Positions 1 to 9,434 are shown, counted from the stretch's first letter. The stretch: 64,000 nt of DNA from an uncultured virus (IMG/VR IMGVR_UViG_3300034178_000025) (IMGVR_UViG_3300034178_000025); one strand, 5' to 3'. A program made the numbers and translations. Notes: generated by a model from the sequence alone, not told the origin.

Positions 1-21
1 CCGTTACGCCTAGCGGCGCGG

Positions 22-50
22 TTGACTAAAAGTCAACTAGCCGGTAGGGT
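22..50 (+). promoter_or_regulatory. sigma70/HrdB-type promoter TTGACT-17-TAGGGT within an inverted repeat
   Basis: -35 at 22-27, -10 at 45-50, 17-nt spacer; GTTGACT-AAA-AGTCAAC palindrome overlaps the -35. Confidence 0.6.
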
Positions 51-148
51 GTGACGTAGCGGGTAGATTAGCCCGACGAAATCAAATTAGACTTTTCCCG
101 ACTGGGATAGGGGTCAACTCTGTCCCAGTCGGGGAGTCTAGACGTCGG

Positions 149-178
149 TTGACTTTCTAGGATTACCCGTGATAGGGT
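149..178 (+). promoter_or_regulatory. promoter TTGACT-18-TAGGGT
   Basis: Hexamers at 149-154 and 173-178, about 50 nt upstream of the ATG at 228. Confidence 0.6.
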
Positions 179-209
179 GGTTCTAGTTGGCGAACCGAGA
201 AATCACTAA

Positions 210-223
210 CACCTGGGACGGTG
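210..223 (+). repeat. start-associated motif CACCTGGGACGGTG, copy 1 of 4 (others 908-921, 1208-1221, 2276-2289)
   Basis: Identical 14-mer, each followed by exactly 4 nt and an ATG (228, 926, 1226, 2294). Confidence 0.9.
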
Positions 224-227
224 TATT

Positions 228-620
228 ATGGGAAAAGCAGGTTTACCAAAATCTCCCATCCAGTTCCGTAAACTGTGGAACTGCTGCTGGGGCAACGAGA
301 CGCACGTCATCACGTTTGACTGCGGGAGTCGCCACGCGGTATGCTCAAAGTGTGCAGCTCAGTATACCCGCCAGAACGGTCCCGACTGGGCAGCCGATTT
401 GCTGGCGGACTGTGCCGATGCCGACATCGAAGTAGTCGGCATTCTGGACCCGGACGAGCAGCACGGCATTCCGTGCTACGTTGGTCCGATCGCTCGTGTT
501 CACGAGCAAATTCGGCCTGGCGTGTACCCGTCGGTGGATATGCTCAGCGACGAGATGCAGCTCTGCACGGTCGTGGTCGGGACTGACAAGTCCTATGCGA
601 TTCGGGGCGAGGACAAATGA
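228..620 (+). CDS. early hypothetical protein, Cys-rich N-terminus
   Basis: 130-aa ORF behind a promoter and the repeated motif; ATGA overlap with the next gene. Confidence 0.7.
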   Translation: MGKAGLPKSPIQFRKLWNCCWGNETHVITFDCGSRHAVCSKCAAQYTRQNGPDWAADLLADCADADIEVVGILDPDEQHGIPCYVGPIARVHEQIRPGVYPSVDMLSDEMQLCTVVVGTDKSYAIRGEDK

Positions 621-820
621 CTCTGGCCACTAGGACAGAATTGCTCAAACTTCACGATGCTGCTACGCTGGCTCGTGACGCTGCTCACCGGGCCTACCAG
701 GTGGCGCTGGCCAATCGCCAGAAAGATGGCGACACCGAGCACGCCTACGAGGCACTGCTGGCCGCCAACCGTGTGCGGGACAGCATTTACCGACTGGTCC
801 TAGCAACAACTGGCTCCTAG
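617..820 (+). CDS. hypothetical helical protein
   Basis: 67-aa ORF, ATGA coupling, GAGGA upstream. Confidence 0.65.
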   Translation: MTLATRTELLKLHDAATLARDAAHRAYQVALANRQKDGDTEHAYEALLAANRVRDSIYRLVLATTGS

Positions 821-846
821 ACATCTTCCTACTCATGTGCTAGACT
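818..846 (+). promoter_or_regulatory. promoter TAGACA-17-TAGACT (TG-extended -10)
   Basis: Hexamers at 818-823 and 841-846; -10 lies inside the inverted repeat CTACTCATGT...ACATGAGTAG. Confidence 0.55.
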
Positions 847-925
847 TAGTGCTAGAACATGAGTAGGCGGGGCATCTAGGCCCAAGAAAGCTAGCACTAG
901 CACCTGACACCTGGGACGGTGTAGT

Positions 926-1126
926 ATGAGTGATCTGCCGGTCTTAACGGAACTGTGCGCCGTCAGTGACGCTGGTGCACTGTGCGGCACTCCGACCAAC
1001 GAGATCTGGGATGCCGATGACATGGTGGACGAGGTCAATGCTGTCCTACGGGCGGCTGGCTCGCCCCTGTTCATGACGGGGCCAGCAATCTGCGAAAAGC
1101 ACATGTGGATGATCCCCGAGTTCTAG
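926..1126 (+). CDS. early hypothetical protein
   Basis: 66-aa ORF preceded by the repeated motif. Confidence 0.7.
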   Translation: MSDLPVLTELCAVSDAGALCGTPTNEIWDADDMVDEVNAVLRAAGSPLFMTGPAICEKHMWMIPEF

Positions 1127-1141
1127 ATCTGTGGAAGCTGG

Positions 1142-1170
1142 TTGCGCATCATGCTAGCATCTGCTAGACT
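1142..1170 (+). promoter_or_regulatory. promoter TTGCGC-17-TAGACT (TG-extended -10)
   Basis: Hexamers at 1142-1147 and 1165-1170, on opposite arms of the inverted repeat 1140-1181. Confidence 0.55.
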
Positions 1171-1225
1171 GGTGCGTAACCGGGGCAACACAGCCCTAGT
1201 CAGCACTCACCTGGGACGGTGAAAA

Positions 1226-1933
1226 ATGGACGCGAAAAACATCACCTACTTACCATCTGTGCCAGTCCGGTACAGCTATGCTCAGCCGAGCATGTCGCGT
1301 CGTGGTGGAGTCAGACTTCACCCGGTTGCCGACGGCAGGCTGAACATGGAGGCCAGTCAGCAGTACCTGAGGACCCGTGACTTCGCTGGTAACAAACTGC
1401 GCGACCATGTTAACCCGACCTCGGGCATGTTCACCCACTGCACCAGTCTGATCGAGAGCTCGCCACTGAACCCAGTCGGCACTGCTCCCGAAGACATGAA
1501 GTCGGGCGTGTCTGGTGCTGACAATGCAGCAACTAGATTGCTCCCTAAAAAGACAGTACATACGCCCGCCGGTCGGGTGTATCTGGATGAAGCTGGTCAA
1601 GTGATCCGCACGACCGATATGGGGGACTCCCCCGTAATCGCTCGACCCCGGATTGCCGACCCGTCCACCACTACCAAACCCTCTAAAGGGAGGCGTAGCG
1701 TGTCCGCTAGGGCACCCAAACGGGCCGTCCCGCAAACCCCGGGCGGAACCGGCCCATCCGGTCGCATCACTGATGCCGACGTCGAGGCCTTCGTTCGGGC
1801 TGTGGCCGAGATGCACGGGCGCACGGTTAGCATCGTGACTCCCAACATGCTCCGGGACGGCCGGGAAGCGCTCAAAGCCCTGCGCAAGCAGGCCGAGAAA
1901 GTGCTAGCCAGGCGTACTAGTCGTGGCAAGTGA
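1226..1933 (+). CDS. early hypothetical protein with an E3-binding-like GTGxxGRIxxxDV motif
   Basis: 235-aa ORF preceded by the repeated motif; contains GTGPSGRITDADV. Confidence 0.7.
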   Translation: MDAKNITYLPSVPVRYSYAQPSMSRRGGVRLHPVADGRLNMEASQQYLRTRDFAGNKLRDHVNPTSGMFTHCTSLIESSPLNPVGTAPEDMKSGVSGADNAATRLLPKKTVHTPAGRVYLDEAGQVIRTTDMGDSPVIARPRIADPSTTTKPSKGRRSVSARAPKRAVPQTPGGTGPSGRITDADVEAFVRAVAEMHGRTVSIVTPNMLRDGREALKALRKQAEKVLARRTSRGK

Positions 1934-2098
1934 TGGTACGGTGGTTACCTTTATCTACACGTACCAATTCACCAGCGACTGGTGCTGGTCGGCAATGGCT
2001 GGCGTACTGGCCTCGGTCGCAGTTATCGGTAACCTGCTGGTGGCCGAGCTGGCAAGCCGAAGTCGGAGGAGAAATGCTAGAACGTGAGCAACTGGGCC

Positions 2099-2127
2099 TT
2101 GACAATAGTAGATGGTCCGATTAGACT
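2099..2127 (+). promoter_or_regulatory. near-consensus promoter TTGACA-17-TAGACT
   Basis: Hexamers at 2099-2104 and 2122-2127, just upstream of tRNA-like element A. Confidence 0.75.
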
Positions 2128-2165
2128 GGACCTAGCTAGAAGAACTACCCTAGCTGGAAAGCTAG

Positions 2166-2252
2166 GCGAGATTGCAGGCTAGCCATCCGAAGCTGTGTCG
2201 CCAGAGATGCGCACGGTACGGACGGAGGGGGGTTCGAATCCCCCAATCTCAC
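2166..2252 (+). ncRNA. tRNA-like element A (acceptor stem and T arm; long hairpin in place of an anticodon arm)
   Basis: GAGATT/AATCTC stem abutting GGGGG-TTCGAAT-CCCCC; inner hairpin TCCG..GCTGTG...CACGGT..CGGA; no canonical D arm or 7-nt anticodon loop. Confidence 0.55.
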
Positions 2253-2293
2253 GTAGTAGTAAGTAACCGCTAGTACACCTGGGACGGTGGAAC

Positions 2294-2707
2294 ATGGGAC
2301 ACAGAGGACACGTAGGCAAAACTCTACTCACACCACCAACTGATCTGGCTCGTGCACTGGTCGGCCTCGGCTGTCCGTTGCAGGTAAACGGCGCCGTCTC
2401 GTTGGAGGAGAGCGACCACCTGAACTGCCCCCCGGGCAGCAAGTGGATGCTCGCGGAACGCTGGGTGGATGAGTCCAGGCATGTTGGCGGAGTTGTCAGG
2501 CTGATCGGTGTCACAACGCCGGCTAGCTGGCCGAGTCAGGACGAGCCTGTCACGCACTACCACCTGCACCTGTTTGCCAGGGCGTTCATGCTCGGCCACG
2601 CGTACCCGCTGGGATTCGGACAGGCACACTGCCTGTGCCCGACCGGCGAGTCTGACGTCAAGTGGTACATGCACGAGTATCTGCCCCAACGATGGGACAT
2701 GAGGTAA
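2294..2707 (+). CDS. early hypothetical protein
   Basis: 137-aa ORF preceded by the repeated motif. Confidence 0.65.
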   Translation: MGHRGHVGKTLLTPPTDLARALVGLGCPLQVNGAVSLEESDHLNCPPGSKWMLAERWVDESRHVGGVVRLIGVTTPASWPSQDEPVTHYHLHLFARAFMLGHAYPLGFGQAHCLCPTGESDVKWYMHEYLPQRWDMR

Positions 2708-2899
2708 TCATCATGCACCGTCGAAAGAGGCAGATTAGGCTGGCGAGCTGGATGTTCAGCCTGCTACGCAGCTACCGGCACCAGGCTAGCCACCGTAGCA
2801 ACCCTCACCAGCGGATCCCCGCTCCCAGGTTGTTGCTACAGCTGGAACGTTAGCCGATAGTCCAGCCCTGAAAATCTAGCAAAAACTAGTGGCTAGGGG

Positions 2900-2929
2900 T
2901 TGCGGCGCAGGGGTTAACCCTGCTACAGT
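2900..2929 (+). promoter_or_regulatory. promoter TTGCGG-18-TACAGT with a palindrome in the spacer
   Basis: GCAGGG-GTTAA-CCCTGC overlaps the spacer and extended -10; upstream of the 393-aa gene. Confidence 0.6.
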
Positions 2930-3004
2930 CAACACAGACAACACGGGACGCACATACAAACGTTACCCGGAACTGAACGGACGCGACCACAGGAGGGCGC
3001 AGCA

Positions 3005-4186
3005 ATGAGTGACACCGAACTGGACTTCGACATCGACACGGACGAGTCGGGTGTCGAGGTCGAGCAGGTCAACGATGGTGACATCCCGGGTACCGGCGAT
3101 GTCGAGGTCGAGCTGACCGAGATCGACGACGCCAGCCTGGCGGAGGCGGTCGCCGCAGCCAGCACCGAACCGGTCGAGCTGACCGACGAGCAGAAGGCTG
3201 AGGCAGAGGCGAAGGCTAAGGCAGACGCCGAAGCGGCCGAGTTGGTCGCAACGGAGAAGCTGGACGCCTTCAAGGCAGCCACCGAGGCAGTGCTGGCCAA
3301 CGACGAGCGTACCGACTGGGTGGCCGAGCTGCCCGTTGCCGTGACCGAACCGGTCACCAGCGCGTACAGCGAGCTGGTCGGCTCCAAGGGCAAGGCAGCA
3401 GGCAAGCAGTACCTGGTCGACCGCATGCAGGCCAAGATGATCGAGGGTGCAACCAACCCTGCCTCGTTCACCGATGCCCGCGTGTACATGCTGCTCAACA
3501 GCGCCTTGAAGGACGCCAAGAGCAAGCGTGAGACGGTCGCCAAGCCCAAGGTCGACCCGACTACTGCCTTCGTCGAGCGTGCGGCGGCCCTGATGCTGGC
3601 CGTCAACCTGCTCACCGTCCCGTCGGACGTCGAGGAGGACTGGGCGGACAAGACCGAGAAGCTGGTCAACACGCTGTCCACCGACGTCGCGGCCTACCAC
3701 GCCTGGCAGGCCGAGCTGGTTCGGGTGGCCAAGCACAACGAGGCCAACCCGCCCGCCGAAGGCGAGAAGCCGGTCGAGGTCGAGACGCCCGACATCAGCG
3801 CGGTCGTGCTGGCGGCGGCGAAGATCGCGGCAGGTCGTGCAGTCGGCAGCGCCGGTCGCAAGCCCAGCCAGTCCAGCAAGGAGGGTAGCGCTGGCAGCAC
3901 CAGCGTCCCCCGCGTCAGCACGGCAGGCTCGGGTCACCGAGGCGACATCGCGAAGCACATCCGCGAGGCGATGAACACGGTCGGCATCGGCGAGTTCATG
4001 TCCGTCGCGGACATCGCCAAGGTGGAGACCTCGGAGTACGGAACCGGCGAGGCCCCGCCGCCCAGCCAGGGTGCGATCTCGGCCCGGCTGTTCCCTCGGG
4101 ACGGCAAGGCATGCACGCTGGACTTCGTCCGCCCGGAGGGTCCCGACCAGGGCCAGCCCAAGAAGGGTGCGGTTCGCACTGCCTGA
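3005..4186 (+). CDS. probably abundant protein, acidic N-terminus, possible C-terminal winged-helix
   Basis: AGGAGG RBS, strong GC3 bias, C-terminal MSVADIAK...PSQGAISARL. Confidence 0.85.
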   Translation: MSDTELDFDIDTDESGVEVEQVNDGDIPGTGDVEVELTEIDDASLAEAVAAASTEPVELTDEQKAEAEAKAKADAEAAELVATEKLDAFKAATEAVLANDERTDWVAELPVAVTEPVTSAYSELVGSKGKAAGKQYLVDRMQAKMIEGATNPASFTDARVYMLLNSALKDAKSKRETVAKPKVDPTTAFVERAAALMLAVNLLTVPSDVEEDWADKTEKLVNTLSTDVAAYHAWQAELVRVAKHNEANPPAEGEKPVEVETPDISAVVLAAAKIAAGRAVGSAGRKPSQSSKEGSAGSTSVPRVSTAGSGHRGDIAKHIREAMNTVGIGEFMSVADIAKVETSEYGTGEAPPPSQGAISARLFPRDGKACTLDFVRPEGPDQGQPKKGAVRTA

Positions 4187-4226
4187 GCAGGGCCTGATCG
4201 GTCCCACCGGCACCATCAGCTAGACC

Positions 4227-4276
4227 CCCGACCTGCCGTGGATACGTCTTCGTGCGAAATGAAGCGGCAGGTCGGG
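4227..4276 (+). terminator. GC-rich stem-loop (terminator or processing site)
   Basis: CCCGACCTGCCG...CGGCAGGTCGGG between the gene end and tRNA-like element B. Confidence 0.5.
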
Positions 4277-4289
4277 CTGTAATACACAT

Positions 4290-4415
4290 GGACACGTAGC
4301 TCATCGGCAGAGCAACCCCGTAAACTCCGGGTCAGATACTAGTAGTCTGATTCAGCGAGTCCGGACTCGCAGTGGGAGCTGGGAAGGTATGCTGGTTCAA
4401 ATCCAGCCGTGTCCC
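4290..4415 (+). ncRNA. tRNA-like element B with a branched insert replacing the anticodon loop
   Basis: Perfect acceptor stem GGACACG/CGTGTCC, TA, D arm GCTC-ATCGGCA-GAGC, T arm GCTGG-TTCAAAT-CCAGC; 77 nt between D and T arms, including hairpins TCAGA..TCTGA and GCGAGT-CCGG-ACTCGC. Confidence 0.8.
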
Positions 4416-4554
4416 CGAGGCCAGCCAGTCCGTTTGCGGAGATGGGTTCACAGAGAAGGTCTCTAAGGGAACGACAGTGATGTCCGACCTGTGCATGGGA
4501 ACTCACTCAAAAGGAAACGTGGTAGGGGGTCAGATTATCCCTGGCTACCCTACT

Positions 4555-4639
4555 GTGGGTAATAGCATTACGGCTTAATGCGCCCTGGATAAACCCGTGA
4601 GGGTAAAGGGAGATCGAGGTTCGAATCCTCGTACCTGCG
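4555..4639 (+). ncRNA. tRNA-like element C with a GNRA-capped hairpin in the anticodon position
   Basis: GTGGGTA/TACCTGC, D arm GCATTA-CGGCT-TAATGC, stem CCCT/AGGG enclosing ACCC-GTGA-GGGT, T arm CGAGG-TTCGAAT-CCTCG. Confidence 0.75.
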
Positions 4640-5092
4640 CTCGCAATCTACACGTAGTCGAGGACAGGTGATAGACATGCGATGTTGACAGCCCCTCAGG
4701 GGCCAGCGTAAGGGGACTCGCATCCCCGACAATAAGCAGGGTAGTGCCGTGCCAGCTTAGGGCAGGTACGGGCAAGGCGCACCCTTTCAGTTACCTGGGG
4801 GTGTTAGTGACACAGTTACTCAGTTTGAGAACCCAGCAAAACTACTATACAACTGAACATGCGTGCAGCACCACGGGCGGCCTGGGACGGGCTATTCTCT
4901 GCGGGGTTGACACCCGTTCCAGGTTGTGGTTAGGTAGTACAGCAACACCGCACTGCGGTAATACAGCGCACCGGGAAGGGTGAGCTTTGGATAGCTGGTT
5001 CATCATCAGCATGTGCATCATGGTGCCAGCTATTGTCGTGTTGGCCATCTGTGCATTCATGCCGATGCCGCACAGGCGAAGGGACAGTGACA

Positions 5093-5377
5093 ATGACTGA
5101 CAGCCCCGATGTGAAGAAGTTCGTGCGTGTCGAGCGTTCGCTCCGGTTCGTTCTCGTTGTCGATCTGGATTCGTACCAGGTCGACGGTCGACAGATGACC
5201 GAAACCGAGATCCGTGACTACGAGCACGCAAAGAACGAGGACAAGGCTGCCTCGGTGCAGGACATGTACGAGGTCGTTGGCTTTGCCGATGATGACACCG
5301 TCGAGACAACGACACGGGTCACCTTCGAGGAGACCATTGTGCTGGGAGGCACCAGTGAGCCCGAGTCGGGAGCGTAA
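5093..5377 (+). CDS. hypothetical acidic protein
   Basis: ATG at 5093 with GAAGGGA upstream, in frame with ORF 5033-5377. Confidence 0.65.
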   Translation: MTDSPDVKKFVRVERSLRFVLVVDLDSYQVDGRQMTETEIRDYEHAKNEDKAASVQDMYEVVGFADDDTVETTTRVTFEETIVLGGTSEPESGA

Positions 5378-5615
5378 CCTGTGGCGAACAGGCTTCCTCG
5401 GCCTGACCGTCGGCGCCTTGGTGGCCGAGTGCGTGGGAGCCTGGGACGGCAACCCCAACACCGACCCCTGGACAGACCTCATCACGACGTACGTGCCCTG
5501 GCAGTTGGCACTGACAGTGTTTGCAGCACTGGCTGCATGGGTGCCTGTTCACTTTGTTGTGGCGTACCGACGGCGCGCCAAGAAGAAAGGACCAGCCGAT
5601 GCTGACGTGGCGTGA
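5355..5615 (+). CDS. membrane protein (2 TM)
   Basis: GGAGG then GTG at 5355; two hydrophobic segments and a basic tail. Confidence 0.65.
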   Translation: MSPSRERNLWRTGFLGLTVGALVAECVGAWDGNPNTDPWTDLITTYVPWQLALTVFAALAAWVPVHFVVAYRRRAKKKGPADADVA

Positions 5616-5784
5616 GCTGATCGCCAACGCCCAGGCCAAGGCGGCCGAGCACGGCGACCAGGTACTGGATCTTCCGGTGTATGTCGGACTGAGTGACGAG
5701 AATCAGCTGGCCGACGGCCTGATCTACATCGAAGTCAGCACGGACGAGGAAGAGCAACTCATCCTCACTACCAACTGGGACTAA
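5599..5784 (+). CDS. hypothetical acidic protein
   Basis: AAAGGA RBS, ATG at 5599. Confidence 0.6.
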   Translation: MLTWRELIANAQAKAAEHGDQVLDLPVYVGLSDENQLADGLIYIEVSTDEEEQLILTTNWD

Positions 5785-5926
5785 CTAATCAAGAAGGGAT
5801 AGGCAATGCGGCGCTGGATCGAAGAGAAGCAGATCATGCTTGGTACCTGGGTTATCGTAGCTGTGGCCGTAGCGTTCAGCGCTGCGCCTATCGTCCACTA
5901 ACCTAGCCACACCTGGAGGTAACCAG

Positions 5927-6145
5927 ATGGGCAAGGCTTACGTCCTGCTCGGCGTGCTCATGACGCACGCTCCCAACGGTCGGGCACAGGCGAAGTGTGC
6001 CGAGATCTACAACAAGCTGATCTACGATGGATTCTCTCAGGTGGGAGCTGAGAGAATCCTAGCCCGGATGCTGGTCAACGGTCTCGACCACGATGACTGG
6101 CCGTGGATTCCGGACTACACGGTGCCACTGAACACTCTCAGCTAG
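5927..6145 (+). CDS. hypothetical protein
   Basis: GGAGGT RBS within CACCTGGAGGT, a variant of the repeated motif. Confidence 0.65.
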   Translation: MGKAYVLLGVLMTHAPNGRAQAKCAEIYNKLIYDGFSQVGAERILARMLVNGLDHDDWPWIPDYTVPLNTLS

Positions 6146-6327
6146 AACAAACACAGATCAAACCCGAAGTTCCCTTCCGAGTTGGTATGTACTGTGCTTC
6201 GGCACTACCGTACTAAGCCTTCCGAGTTGGGTCGAGGTCGAGATATTGTCCTCCTGTTCAGACCTCGTTAAACAAAATGTATAGGTACGGGACCGCTCCC
6301 GGGTACAAGTTATGCCGGGGGCGTCAA

Positions 6328-6399
6328 GGGGATCTAGCTCAACGGTAGAGCACTGGCCCTGCAAGCCAGCGGTTAGGGGTTCGAGTCCCCTGGTCTCCA
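6328..6399 (+). tRNA. tRNA-Ala(TGC)
   Basis: Full cloverleaf: GGGGATC/GGTCTCC with G3:U70, A73, D arm GCTC/GAGC, CTGGC-CCTGCAA-GCCAG, AGGGG-TTCGAGT-CCCCT; C at position 33; CCA not encoded. Confidence 0.93.
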
Positions 6400-6683
6400 C
6401 GCACGCCAGCGAGTACCTGATATCTGCTGTTATCAGCATGTAAAGATATTCGGTACTGTGTTTCGAGGGTGCACTAATGAGAAGATAGGGACTGTCGATG
6501 ATCATGTCGATAAGGCCGGTTCAGTGGAGGCGCCAGTGAGATACCACCCAGAGGTTAGCAACTGAATCCAGTAGGTGGGAGCCGGTGAAGCTGTGCACCT
6601 GTAACTCTCGACATGTATCGCGTGGTGAAGGCGACAGAAGGTAGGGTAGAGGGTGATCCCTATCAAATGAAGTTGCAATGCAA

Positions 6684-6790
6684 CACTGACCAGGACAACG
6701 TGCTGGCTGACGGGCCAGCCCAATCCAACTGTACGTCTGTTGGTGGCAGATAGTCCCGGGCACTGGGTTTGAATCCCAGTCTGGTCAGTG
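6684..6790 (+). ncRNA. tRNA-like element E (extended acceptor stem, T-like arm)
   Basis: CACTGACCAG/CTGGTCAGTG abutting ACTGGG-TTTGAAT-CCCAGT; inner arms GCTGGC-TGACGG-GCCAGC and CCAAC-9nt-GTTGG. Confidence 0.6.
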
Positions 6791-7137
6791 TGCAGCACAG
6801 CAAGGCATGGCATGGCCTTATCTCCAATAAAGGGGCAGCGAGTCGGATTAGAGACCCGACTGGATGATCCGCTAATCAGGGTCACCAGGGAAGGCGACTG
6901 CCCCTCCGATAGCAAACTGGACAGTGTCAACCAGTGAGTAGCTATTGACACACAGAGATCCACATGATTGAATGTTGCAGTCACGCTAGCTAGTGCATTG
7001 GCTGCATCGAGTCGCAAACTGTACGTGCAGGGCGGGCATATCACGTCCCAGGGTGCCCGCCTGGCTTTCGCAGCAGCAACTCGGTGCAGTCAATGGACTG
7101 TCTAGAGACTGGTCCATCGCGCAGTTAGTCACCACGG

Positions 7138-8831
7138 ATGCAACAAAGAGAGCCCGGTCGTCTGTACCCTCCCGTACACCGGCCGGGCTTTCTCTTGGAA
7201 GGGTACGGTGCGGAGTTGGGCAACGAGTGGAAAGACGAGAACGAGAAGGACTTCCCTCGCTGGTTGCTGTGGTTGTGCATCATCTTCGTGATCGGCGTGG
7301 TGATTGCCTGGAAGGTCGGGTGGCTCCACTGAAGCTGGACGCATTCGAGCGGTTCACCCTCAACGACTTCATCGCACCGATGGAGGGTTACAAGTACGGC
7401 GCAGTGCACGTAGTGTGTACTGAATGCTACGCCAGGGTGGACGGCAACCAGGAGACTCCCCTGTTCGGGGATGACGAGTACTGGTACTACTGGGTGCCCG
7501 ATGCCATGGCCAGCCAGCTATTCGTCTGGATGTACAGCCACCTGAACAAGTGGCACAACAAGGAAGGGAAGTTGAGTGGGTCTGCACAACAAGCGTGACG
7601 ACTTCAAACTCCTCGCGCTGGCCGTCGGGATCGTGGTCGTGCTGGTTGCGGTCTACATCGGGGTGGTGTACTGGGGTGGGTAAATCATCTGCAAAGAAGT
7701 CCAACGAGAATCCTGACCGGACGTTCTTCAAGATGGTGGCAGGCGCCTGGCTGATGTTCGGCACGGCGGGTGCACTCATCCTGTTGTTCGTCCATGTCCG
7801 GGGCTAGTCATGCGTGGGGCTGACAACGTAGGGCTATCGCTGTTCTGGGTAGCCCTGCTTGTCTTCGGATGTATCGCTATCTTCCTGTTGTGTGGATAGC
7901 CCATCGACCCATCCAAGGGTAGCAAGAAAGGAAGCACGTGCTCCACTACCTGTCCACCCTGCCCTACCGAACCAACATCCCGGTGCCTAACCCGAAGGCG
8001 CCCAACTCGAAGGATGTTGTCAACAAGGGCAACGACCTGTCCGACTGGCTTGCCCACCGAGGCGGGACATTCTGGGCGATCGTCGTGATCCTGGTCGTTG
8101 CCTTGGTTGTCACCTCCCTCCTAAAACGACCCTTCGTCAGGGGGATCGTGATCGGTGGAATCATCCTCGCGATCATCTTCGCAGTACTGAATGGAGGGAG
8201 GTGAACATGAAAAGTTGGTTCTCGATTGCCGTACTCTGGGTGATTGTCATCGCCGCAGGTATCTGGTGGGCCTCCGGCAAGTAGAAGGGACGGCATGAAG
8301 AGGGAACACCACAGAGGCAGGCACGCGTATAACCAGGGAGGTAACTTCGTGAAGAAGAAACCACACGATGGTGCTGCGCTTGCAATCTCTGTAGCAATCA
8401 CTGTAGTACTCATCTTCGTCTTGACCGCCGTACTGGCAGGGTCTTGACCTAACAACCCCCGACAAGCAGGAGTGCAATGGAGTACGGAGTCTGGATACTC
8501 GGGTTGGCGTTCGTCATCCTGGGTCTGCTCGGTACCTGGTATAACGCAGAGCAAAACAAGTACGGCACGGCAGGTGTGTTCCTCTGCCTGGTCGTCATCG
8601 GCGCCGCAATGCTGGTGTTCAGTTGGTTGGCGTGGGCGAGCAGTGTCTGACGGCGGCGGACCCGCGATGCCTGACGGCCCAGTCAATCCGCTCTGGTTCA
8701 TCTTCATGATTGCCATGCTGTGCATCGGTGCGCTGGCGCCCAGTAGATGGATCAAGATTGCCTGCGCGGTAGTAATCGTGCTGACAATCTTTACAATGCT
8801 CGGGTTCCTTCCCCCCGGAGGAATTAGATAG
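7138..8831 (+). other. cluster of small membrane-protein genes (7138-7332, 7576-7683, 7676-7807, 7810-7899, 7938-8204, 8207-8284, 8295-8447, 8477-8650, 8667-8831)
   Basis: Tightly packed 25-88 aa ORFs, several with clear RBSs, each with 1-2 hydrophobic helices. Confidence 0.65.
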
Positions 8832-8861: not shown

Positions 8862-9434
8862 GTGCGCTCACAGATCGGCGCCCGGGACGTAGTTAAGAAC
8901 AGTAAGGGTGAGGTGGTACTCGTGTCAACGATGCGTACCTATCTGTCTCGCGTGGACGAGGCGGGTAGGCTGGTGATCTTCCGGCATGACGGTGTGCCAA
9001 TCACCAAGGAAGAGCAGGACTGGTTCGCACAGACCGTCACTGTCCAACTAAGGACTGACAACATGACTGCGACCCACCAGCACGACACAGTGTCGCTGGA
9101 TCAGCCGGTATTGTCTGGCAGGAACCGCAAGACGGGCGAGGAAGTTCTGGTACACCCCCTCATCCACGAACTCCAAGCGTTGATTCAGGCACGAGGTTGG
9201 CGCCTGGCTGCGGTATCTCGGGCACTCGGCTTCAGGAACTCGGCACTGTCCGAGTGGATGCGGGGAATGTTCCGACCCAACCTGGCTAACGCTGCCGCTG
9301 CGTTCGGCGCAGCTGGATACAGGCTGGTGCCAGTGAGCTTCCGAATCGAGGAAGACGTACGCAAGATGTGCGTCGCCGACGAGCAAGAGATACTTGCTGA
9401 GTACTACACGATCGGCCTGGGACAGGCAGACTGA
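8862..9434 (+). CDS. XRE-family HTH domain protein
   Basis: C-terminal ARGWRLAAVSRALGFRNSALSEWMRGMFRPNL; start uncertain. Confidence 0.7.
   Translation: MRSQIGARDVVKNSKGEVVLVSTMRTYLSRVDEAGRLVIFRHDGVPITKEEQDWFAQTVTVQLRTDNMTATHQHDTVSLDQPVLSGRNRKTGEEVLVHPLIHELQALIQARGWRLAAVSRALGFRNSALSEWMRGMFRPNLANAAAAFGAAGYRLVPVSFRIEEDVRKMCVADEQEILAEYYTIGLGQAD

Follow-up and report, generated by a model that had tools for sequence, protein, structure and literature searches.

Why should the early genes of a phage be interspersed with RNAs that are built like tRNA but cannot decode? The question is raised by four elements, A, B, C and E, in a DNA stretch of 64,000 nucleotides (nt) from an uncultured virus (IMG/VR record IMGVR_UViG_3300034178_000025; the whole stretch is referred to as the window), which represents a tailed-phage genome. 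All four lie in non-coding DNA of the early region, on the gene strand (+) and beside a true tRNA-Ala gene. Each has a T arm with a T loop of the tRNA type and, stacked on this arm, an acceptor stem, and none has a usable anticodon arm. The analysis demonstrates that they are real tRNA-shaped folds unable to decode, and comparison with the two nearest relatives of the window phage, the contigs L025 and G001, indicates that A and B are under selection. As a tentative reading, we propose that the elements serve as cutting marks for host tRNA-processing enzymes.

Four tRNA-shaped folds without an anticodon arm

The positions of the elements and their T loops (TTCGAAT in A, TTCAAAT in B, TTCGAAT in C and TTTGAAT in E) were found as claimed in the initial annotation, which had been made from the sequence alone, and the GG-containing D-like loops reported for B, C and E were also seen. 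Folding bore out the interiors described there, namely a long hairpin in A, a branched domain of about 66 nt in B, a GUGA-capped hairpin in C, and a 9-nt loop with a long linker in E. The absence of a 7-nt anticodon loop holds for the geometry of an anticodon arm, although not literally: the interiors of A and B do contain 7-nt loops, which lie outside this geometry and lack U33 or a purine at position 37. The primary sequences proved unrelated, as had been stated, a comparison of 36 pairs of nine elements giving an 11-nt T-loop stretch as its sole match.

Element A comprises an acceptor of 6–7 base pairs (bp), a GG-containing loop replacing the D arm, the long hairpin and the T arm; its acceptor/T stack is 11 bp long, its trailer begins A-C-G, and its 3′ end lies 43 nt before the ATG of gene 2294–2707. 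In B, which follows a gene for a 393-residue (393-aa) protein and a 12-bp hairpin, the acceptor, D arm and T arm are canonical, and the anticodon arm is swapped for a stem bearing two hairpins. Element C has an acceptor with a G3.U70 pair, a 6-bp D stem, an irregular arm capped by the GUGA loop, and the T arm. The 7-bp acceptor of E (6688–6694 with 6780–6786) is extended by four leader–trailer pairs and encloses a 6–7-bp D-like stem with a GG loop, a stem with the 9-nt loop, a 16-nt linker and the T arm. The 3′ trailers of A, B, C, the true tRNA-Ala and a further cloverleaf in G001 (X) all start with C, mostly CG.

Standard tools recover these folds only in part. ARAGORN makes two calls in the region, tRNA-Ala at 6328–6400 and a 'tRNA-???' at 4555–4640, which is C, with an 'anticodon' of two letters; the pseudo or undetermined calls that had been expected thus appeared for C, while A, B and E went uncalled. 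In an Rfam search of 1900–7300, B exceeded the gathering score of the tRNA family (RF00005; 29 bits) with a score of 39.3 bits. In the anticodon arm, 66 nt of B stand against 13 in the model, and two non-standard pairs flank this 66-nt stretch in the cmscan alignment. A reached 20.8 bits to tRNA-Sec only (E 1.4; gathering score 47), which is noise level, and no match at E≤10 was found for C or E.

Folds of this kind are far rarer in shuffled sequence. A strict scan of both strands of the 64 kb, for a 7/7-pair acceptor that directly abuts a 5/5-pair T stem around a T-loop motif, recovered four distinct T arms. They belong to B, C, tRNA-Ala and E and lie on the + strand within 2.5 kb (4290–6790); 30 Markov shuffles gave a mean of 0.5 rows. 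A was missed because its stack, at 11 bp, is one pair short of the 12 required. Four copies of the motif GGTTCRANYCC are present (in A, B, C and tRNA-Ala) against 0.64 expected, a count reached in 0 of 100 shuffles, and E differs from the motif by one mismatch. A scan for + strand terminators between the elements and their neighbours found none.

In viral contigs, the T arm and acceptor pattern of B matched G001 and otherwise just two ordinary tRNA-Met(CAT) genes, which belong to unrelated low-GC phages; in genomes it matched 23 loci, unsorted as to tRNA genes, 21 in archaeal bins and 2 in bacterial, non-actinomycete bins. No host parent tRNA was identified with this pattern in either set.

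Table 1 Positions of the elements and neighbouring features, in window coordinates unless a contig is named
Feature	Position	Strand	Basis and remarks
Sigma-70-like promoter, TTGACA / 17 nt / TAGACT	2099..2127	+	Predicted; 10/12 matches, best in 1–7400; ~37 nt upstream of A
Element A	2166..2252	+	Folds; homologues in L025 and G001
Hairpin motif CACCTGGGACGGTG	2276..2289	+	4 nt before ATG of gene 2294–2707; bounds 3′ flank of A
393-aa early gene, phrog_6708, function unknown	3005..4186	+	tRNA-like elements come after its homologues in several relatives
12-bp hairpin between 393-aa gene and B	4227..4276	+	Kept in L025; G001 has X in its place
Element B	4290..4415	+	39.3 bits to Rfam tRNA; three phages
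Conserved hairpin H, 47 nt	4417..4463	+	18 pairs, 2 compensatory in outer stem
Element C	4555..4640	+	ARAGORN 'tRNA-???', fold, strict scan; private to window phage
True tRNA-Ala (UGC)	6328..6400	+	Rfam tRNA 66.3 bits; conserved in L025 and G001
Element E	6684..6790	+	Fold, strict scan; private to window phage
X, 73-nt cloverleaf in G001	L016 2597–2669		13 nt upstream of B; 7-bp acceptor, 6-bp D stem, T arm

Recurrence in related phages

Relatives were found in viral contigs with the AAA-ATPase of the window and with an alignment of the 393-aa family; the 393-aa protein as sole query found no relative there. G001, a 73-kb viral contig with terminal repeats, has 66–78% nucleotide identity to the window, and L025, a 25.9-kb metagenome contig, 70–94%. 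L026, a third close relative, is an identical fragment. Against GenBank phages, a megablast of 2000–7200 and a sensitive blastn of 4186–5094 gave no match, and a sensitive blastn of 6146–7200 matched tRNA genes only, via its tRNA-Ala part.

Element A is present at the same place in L025. Both partners differ in two acceptor pairs, A-U being replaced by G-C and U-A by C-G; a further pair has become G.U, and in the long hairpin a G.U pair is reversed to U.G. G001 carries a positional homologue in which the loop replacing the D arm shares 9/11 letters, the acceptor is wholly different in sequence yet paired, and the long hairpin and T arm are other ones. In the three-sequence alignment, 86.8% of the cells are paired, against 33–52% with partners slid, and 4/26 pairs are changed on both sides, a count that 19 of 500 shuffles also reach. 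The G001 homologue ends about 50 nt before a GTG. Because the gene that follows is unrelated to the one after A in the window, the comparison indicates that the unit conserved is made up of the TTGACA box, A and the start-site motif, without the gene. The −35 hexamer TTGACA is likewise found upstream of A in L025 and G001, with weaker −10 boxes, and both sites fall below the thresholds of the scanning tool. Within A itself, a G-run on the 5′ side of the T stem (window position 2227) is polymorphic in length, with one G fewer in contigs of two other sequencing runs and in L025.

Element B was present in all three phages (the window, L025 and G001), its acceptor, D arm, variable loop and T arm being nearly invariant. 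A U-A pair of the T stem is A-U in G001, the closing G-C pair of interior hairpin 2 is A-U in L025, and in place of interior hairpin 1 G001 has another hairpin, of completely different sequence. Across the alignment, 92.7% of the cells are paired and 5/37 pairs are double-changed, as in 15 of 500 shuffles. In the L025 copy, pair 3:70 is a U.U mismatch and the basal stem has one pair broken; the discriminator base differs among the relatives (C, A, A). No conserved anticodon-like stem-loop was found in the three homologues; a local hairpin that could form in the window and L025 is missing in G001. Hairpin H begins 2 nt after the B discriminator and is better conserved than the interior of B, its loops, including a 9-nt internal loop, being nearly invariant in the three phages. 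The palindromic hairpin 2 of B was also considered as a repeated operator and rejected, with one exact copy and near-matches within chance.

Recurrence at the same place in L025 and G001 with compensatory base changes indicates that A and B are under selection, with weak statistics, as the covariation rests on three sequences. Normal tRNAs in relatives, without covariation in the inserts, would have spoken against the set as first described; for A and B the relatives carry anticodon-less elements as well and base pairs co-vary, those of the inserts included. C and E are without comparators and may be in simple decay.

C and E are absent from L025 and G001, lying in window-specific segments of about 350 and 120 nt, respectively. 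In the contigs of two other runs, this region matches the window without a difference. A third run is more divergent; its piece over E differs at 2/266 nt (0.8%) and five other pieces differ by 2–10%, among the matches listed, which lends weak support to constraint on E. L025 has a 31-nt repeat in two copies (4710–4740 and 2970–3000, minus strand; 30/31 letters identical) at the places of C and E, and this repeat is not in the window or G001. X in G001 has a middle arm of a 5-bp stem with an 8-nt loop, and ARAGORN makes no call on it.

Similar elements follow homologues of the 393-aa gene in more distant phages. Gordonia phage Woes has an 83-nt anticodon-less element after its homologue (31% identity), following gene 88 at about 69,515–69,597 of NC_030905; an element of this type is present in 25 GenBank records and annotated in 0/25. 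In Rhodococcus phage ReqiDocB7, a 129-nt element occupies an unannotated gap after the homologue. In the contig L066, which comes from a 74,431-nt IMG viral record, an element that is homologous to that of Woes and fits the Woes-type model lies downstream of the 393-aa gene homologue, at a distance of about 1 kb, and ends 34 nt before an ATG. Between Woes and L066, 9/24 pairs are compensated, and both elements have oversized loops of 9–12 nt in place of the anticodon loop. A Woes-type covariance model scores A of the window at 14.9 bits (E 0.3), no better than true tRNAs, and gives weak 17-bit matches directly after the homologues in L005 and L006, whose folds are not better than shuffles. Because the model does not convincingly capture the window elements, no single homologous family is claimed; what appears to be shared is a habit and a position.

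True tRNA-Leu genes stand in comparable spots of the relatives L056 and L004. A tRNA-Leu without a long variable arm is unusual, and the 74-nt tRNA-Leu(UAA) of L056 (891–964), a more distant relative, has none; it lies 50 nt before an ATG, with a trailer, ACGTAG, that resembles that of A. It was considered as a positional homologue of A, which is not claimed because its flanking genes are not homologous to those of the window. In L004, a distant relative, about 600 nt separate the ATPase gene from a weak upstream match to the type II hammerhead ribozyme (9316–9379; 30.4 bits, gathering score 37, E 0.039).

The tRNA-Ala gene and E belong to a non-coding stretch of about 1 kb (6146–7200, +), in which several blocks besides tRNA-Ala are conserved with L025 and/or G001 and which looks like a non-coding RNA operon. 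The block at 6159–6327 holds a duplicated CCTTCCGAGTTGG. Further blocks lie at 6517–6590 and about 6826–6912, the latter closed by a stem GGGGCAG/CTGCCCC for which G001 has another, still pairing sequence. The cluster ends at about 7150–7197 with a terminator-like hairpin followed by TTTCTCTT. Rfam finds nothing but the tRNA in 6146–7200.

The 14-nt start-site motif, CACCTGGGACGGTG, occurs four times in the window (210–223, 908–921, 1208–1221 and 2276–2289, +) against 0.03 expected, 4–5 nt before the ATG of four early genes, and has copies in L025 and G001. In a possible fold, CACC pairs with GGTG around a 6-nt loop; the GGTG, which could pair with the 3′ end of 16S rRNA, would then be hidden. 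A candidate long hairpin RNA of 128 nt lies at 6985–7112 (+), with counterparts in L025 (2697–2826, −) and L001 (1072–1206, +) and a minimum free energy of −69 kcal/mol. It is kept in three phages with 46 predicted pairs, 8 of them compensated, and its invariant apical region contains the exact reverse complement of the core of CACCTGGGACGGTG over 9 nt in the window and 10 nt in L025 and G001. Its loop GTCCCA and the loop TGGGAC of the start-site hairpin could kiss, and on this complementarity the RNA may be a trans-acting regulator of early-gene translation. RNA duplex energies of the long hairpin with early 5′ untranslated regions (UTRs) were no better than with shuffles or control starts.

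The + strand genes of the window (1–34 kb) include an AAA_5 ATPase, a CobT-like vWA protein, a tyrosine recombinase, an SNF2 helicase, RusA and a DNA methylase; the − strand encodes lysin, tail, capsid, portal and terminase-region proteins. PHROGs and Pfam assign no function to the early genes. The ATPase matches 117 GenBank phage records, all below 60% identity (best about 38%), and since nearly all are phages of Gordonia, Tsukamurella and Rhodococcus, the host is probably an actinomycete. DNA of the window was found in sediment metagenomes, and none of the sequencing runs listed for it is an RNA run.

Proposed processing marks and alternative readings

RNase P, RNase Z and the CCA-adding enzyme read the acceptor stem and the elbow formed by the D and T arms. 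Such parts are kept in the elements, the decoding part being variable or gone; the elements lie between genes on the gene strand, have no + strand terminators nearby, and abut conserved RNA features. For these reasons, and by analogy with plant-mitochondrial t-elements, we favour, with less than even confidence, a reading of the elements as cutting marks for RNase P and RNase Z that would give adjacent mRNAs and small structured RNAs their ends. In this pathway, A, B, C and E would be tRNA-derived modules within early phage transcripts, having retained the acceptor/T-arm stack, the T loop and mostly a GG-containing D loop and lost the decoding arm. Host RNase P would cut on the 5′ side of each element and RNase Z on the 3′ side. 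Cutting at A would then detach a promoter-proximal leader from the gene downstream, which has a short 5′ UTR and a ribosome-site hairpin. The conserved 393-aa gene would have its mRNA end at B, where hairpin H would also be set free, tRNA-Ala and E would punctuate the conserved RNA cluster, and stable tRNA-shaped by-products would be released. The folds, strand and position of the elements and the conservation of A and B with compensatory changes are observed here; that the elements are transcribed and cut, and any benefit to the phage, is inferred. Among the roles suggested in the initial annotation, processing punctuation fits the anatomy best, given the spacing of B and H, the tRNA-Ala and E within the cluster, and A before a start codon. 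The features of an RNase P/Z substrate are kept, while the interiors vary freely.

Several observations weigh against such marks. One placed only about 37 nt after a promoter is odd, and the retention in G001 of A, the TTGACA box and the start-site motif despite an unrelated gene fits a self-standing RNA gene at least as well. Hairpin 2 of B and hairpin H are invariant in sequence beyond the need of a cut mark. The 11-bp stack of A, the U.U mismatch of B in L025 and a C at T-loop position 55 of A in L025 also count against them. Selection on C and E, which have no homologues in L025 and G001, is not supported, and for A and B the double changes come from three sequences and are matched by 15–19 of 500 shuffles.

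Some of these points would suit stand-alone, stable tRNA mimics made early that bind or soak up host factors for the top half of tRNA, cutting serving only to release them. The envisaged targets would be acceptor-stem-targeting toxins, defence nucleases, modification enzymes, the CCA-adding enzyme, a synthetase or SmpB-like partners. A lies directly behind a strong predicted promoter and, with its flanking motifs, survives the swap of the downstream gene, and hairpin 2 and the trailer of B are invariant. C, the only element of the four with G3.U70, carries a mark read by alanyl-tRNA synthetase, although one such pair among four elements is within chance. No target is indicated, and none of the 85 open reading frames (ORFs) of the window has a Pfam match to a tRNA-related enzyme or a Ro60/TROVE protein; no element encodes CCA, and the discriminators vary among relatives. 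A precedent is mycobacteriophage DS6A, for which a gene listed as a 'TLD only' tmRNA (transfer-messenger RNA), little more than the tRNA-like domain, was suggested to titrate SmpB, according to the part of Hudson et al. (2014, PMC4131195) concerned with it. We regard the mimic reading as rather unlikely; it is compatible with processing marks and, if the elements were decoys, they would be a new kind of RNA counter-defence.

A similarly low probability is given to the view that some elements, above all C, E and X, are tRNA genes in functionless decay or remodelling, left over from a rapid turnover of tRNA genes in phages. Since C and E are private to the window phage, they could still be decaying tRNA genes: both lie in window-specific indel segments, G001 has a different cloverleaf with an 8-nt loop beside B, and L056 and L004 hold true tRNAs in comparable spots. 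Against this, C and E retain every stem intact, a state that decay would not be expected to leave, and neither matches a tRNA model at E≤10, hence they are not lightly damaged tRNAs. The low divergence around E relative to the other pieces of the third run also speaks against decay, as does the clear conservation of A and B with compensatory changes.

A broader proposal, which we consider doubtful, is that the early region is an RNA-based kit for host takeover and regulation, cut apart by host tRNA enzymes, with the look-alikes acting both as processing handles and as stable decoys for host factors by which acceptor ends are attacked or modified. Hairpin H and the 128-nt hairpin would be among the RNAs released, the 128-nt hairpin as a kissing-loop switch for the translation of early genes. 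Roles beyond those listed here are equally doubtful.

Two further readings are contradicted. Splicing of the inserts as introns, giving ordinary decoding tRNAs, is highly improbable: B does fit the tRNA model end to end with a single insertion in the anticodon arm, but no anticodon stem with a 7-nt U33 loop remains on either side of it, the local hairpin of B is missing in G001, no group I intron or other ribozyme matches at E≤10, and bacterial tRNA introns are far longer than these inserts. Chance stem-loops in GC-rich non-coding DNA, with which the modest fold z-scores of the single elements (−2.1 to −3.0) would agree, can practically be dismissed in view of the T arms clustered on one strand, the excess of the T-arm motif and the conservation of A and B across phages.

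Processing of the proposed kind would release small regulatory RNAs and would constitute a layer of expression wholly missed by present annotation, as the 25 unannotated Woes-type records illustrate. The idea is directly testable, since the Woes-type element occurs in cultivable phages of Gordonia terrae 3612. Whether the elements are marks or decoys, 'tRNA-???' and pseudo-tRNA calls in phage genomes should not be read as junk.

Relation to known tRNA-like RNAs

In the literature, judged mostly from titles and abstract openings, neither such elements in actinophages nor t-elements in phages were found described. The initial ranking of the set as the strongest candidate for an undescribed system is too strong, as tRNA-like processing signals are of a known kind. 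The small stable RNAs encoded within the tRNA cluster of phage T4 (species 1 and 2), like the tRNA-miRNA units of murine gammaherpesvirus 68, are viral, non-decoding RNAs that are tRNA-shaped or tRNA-linked and processed by tRNA enzymes, a parallel at the level of general description. With canonical tRNA (RF00005), all four elements share the acceptor, T arm and T loop; the D arm is retained in B, is looser and D-like in C and E, and has no stem in A. A 7-bp acceptor on a 5-bp T stem with the T-loop motif is found in B, C and E. Because the anticodon arm fails in all, none having a 5-bp stem with a 7-nt U33/R37 loop, they are not canonical tRNAs.

YrlA-type Y RNAs likewise have tRNA-like D and T arms and an acceptor-like stem, and YrlA of M. 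smegmatis is cut by RNase P and receives CCA, as stated in the sections of Chen et al. (2014, PMC4201824) on this RNA. Their genes adjoin Ro60, and their topology, as described there, differs from that of the window elements, in which the 5′ and 3′ ends form the acceptor stem (PMC4201824). With this different topology, no Ro60 gene (no TROVE match among the 85 ORFs) and no Rfam match to a YrlA-type Y RNA at E≤10 in 1900–7300, the elements are not Y RNAs of this type.

The tRNA-like domain of tmRNA has no D stem and in this differs from C, with its 6-bp D stem. The likeness lies in an anticodon-less tRNA top half in an actinophage, as listed for DS6A (PMC4131195). C also has a G3.U70 pair, within chance for one of four elements. 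Neither ARAGORN nor Rfam finds a tmRNA in the region, and there is no tag reading frame.

The closest likeness is to the t-elements of plant mitochondria, which, in the part of Forner et al. (2007, PMC1920247) that describes them, carry the GGTTCRANYCC motif and direct cuts by RNase P and RNase Z at mRNA ends. These t-elements are co-transcribed with genes, adjoin 5′ or 3′ mRNA ends, have non-canonical tRNA-like folds and, once cut, can persist as stable small RNAs (PMC1920247). The same combination of motif, non-canonical fold, intergenic position and gene strand is found in A, B and C, and in E with one motif mismatch. The systems differ in that one belongs to an organelle and the other to an Actinomycetota phage, no common descent being implied; the phage elements are known from sequence alone, and B with its trailer holds invariant sequence that a mere cut mark does not need. 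If the cuts by RNase P and RNase Z are real, tailed phages of Actinomycetota use a mitochondria-type tRNA punctuation on their early transcripts.

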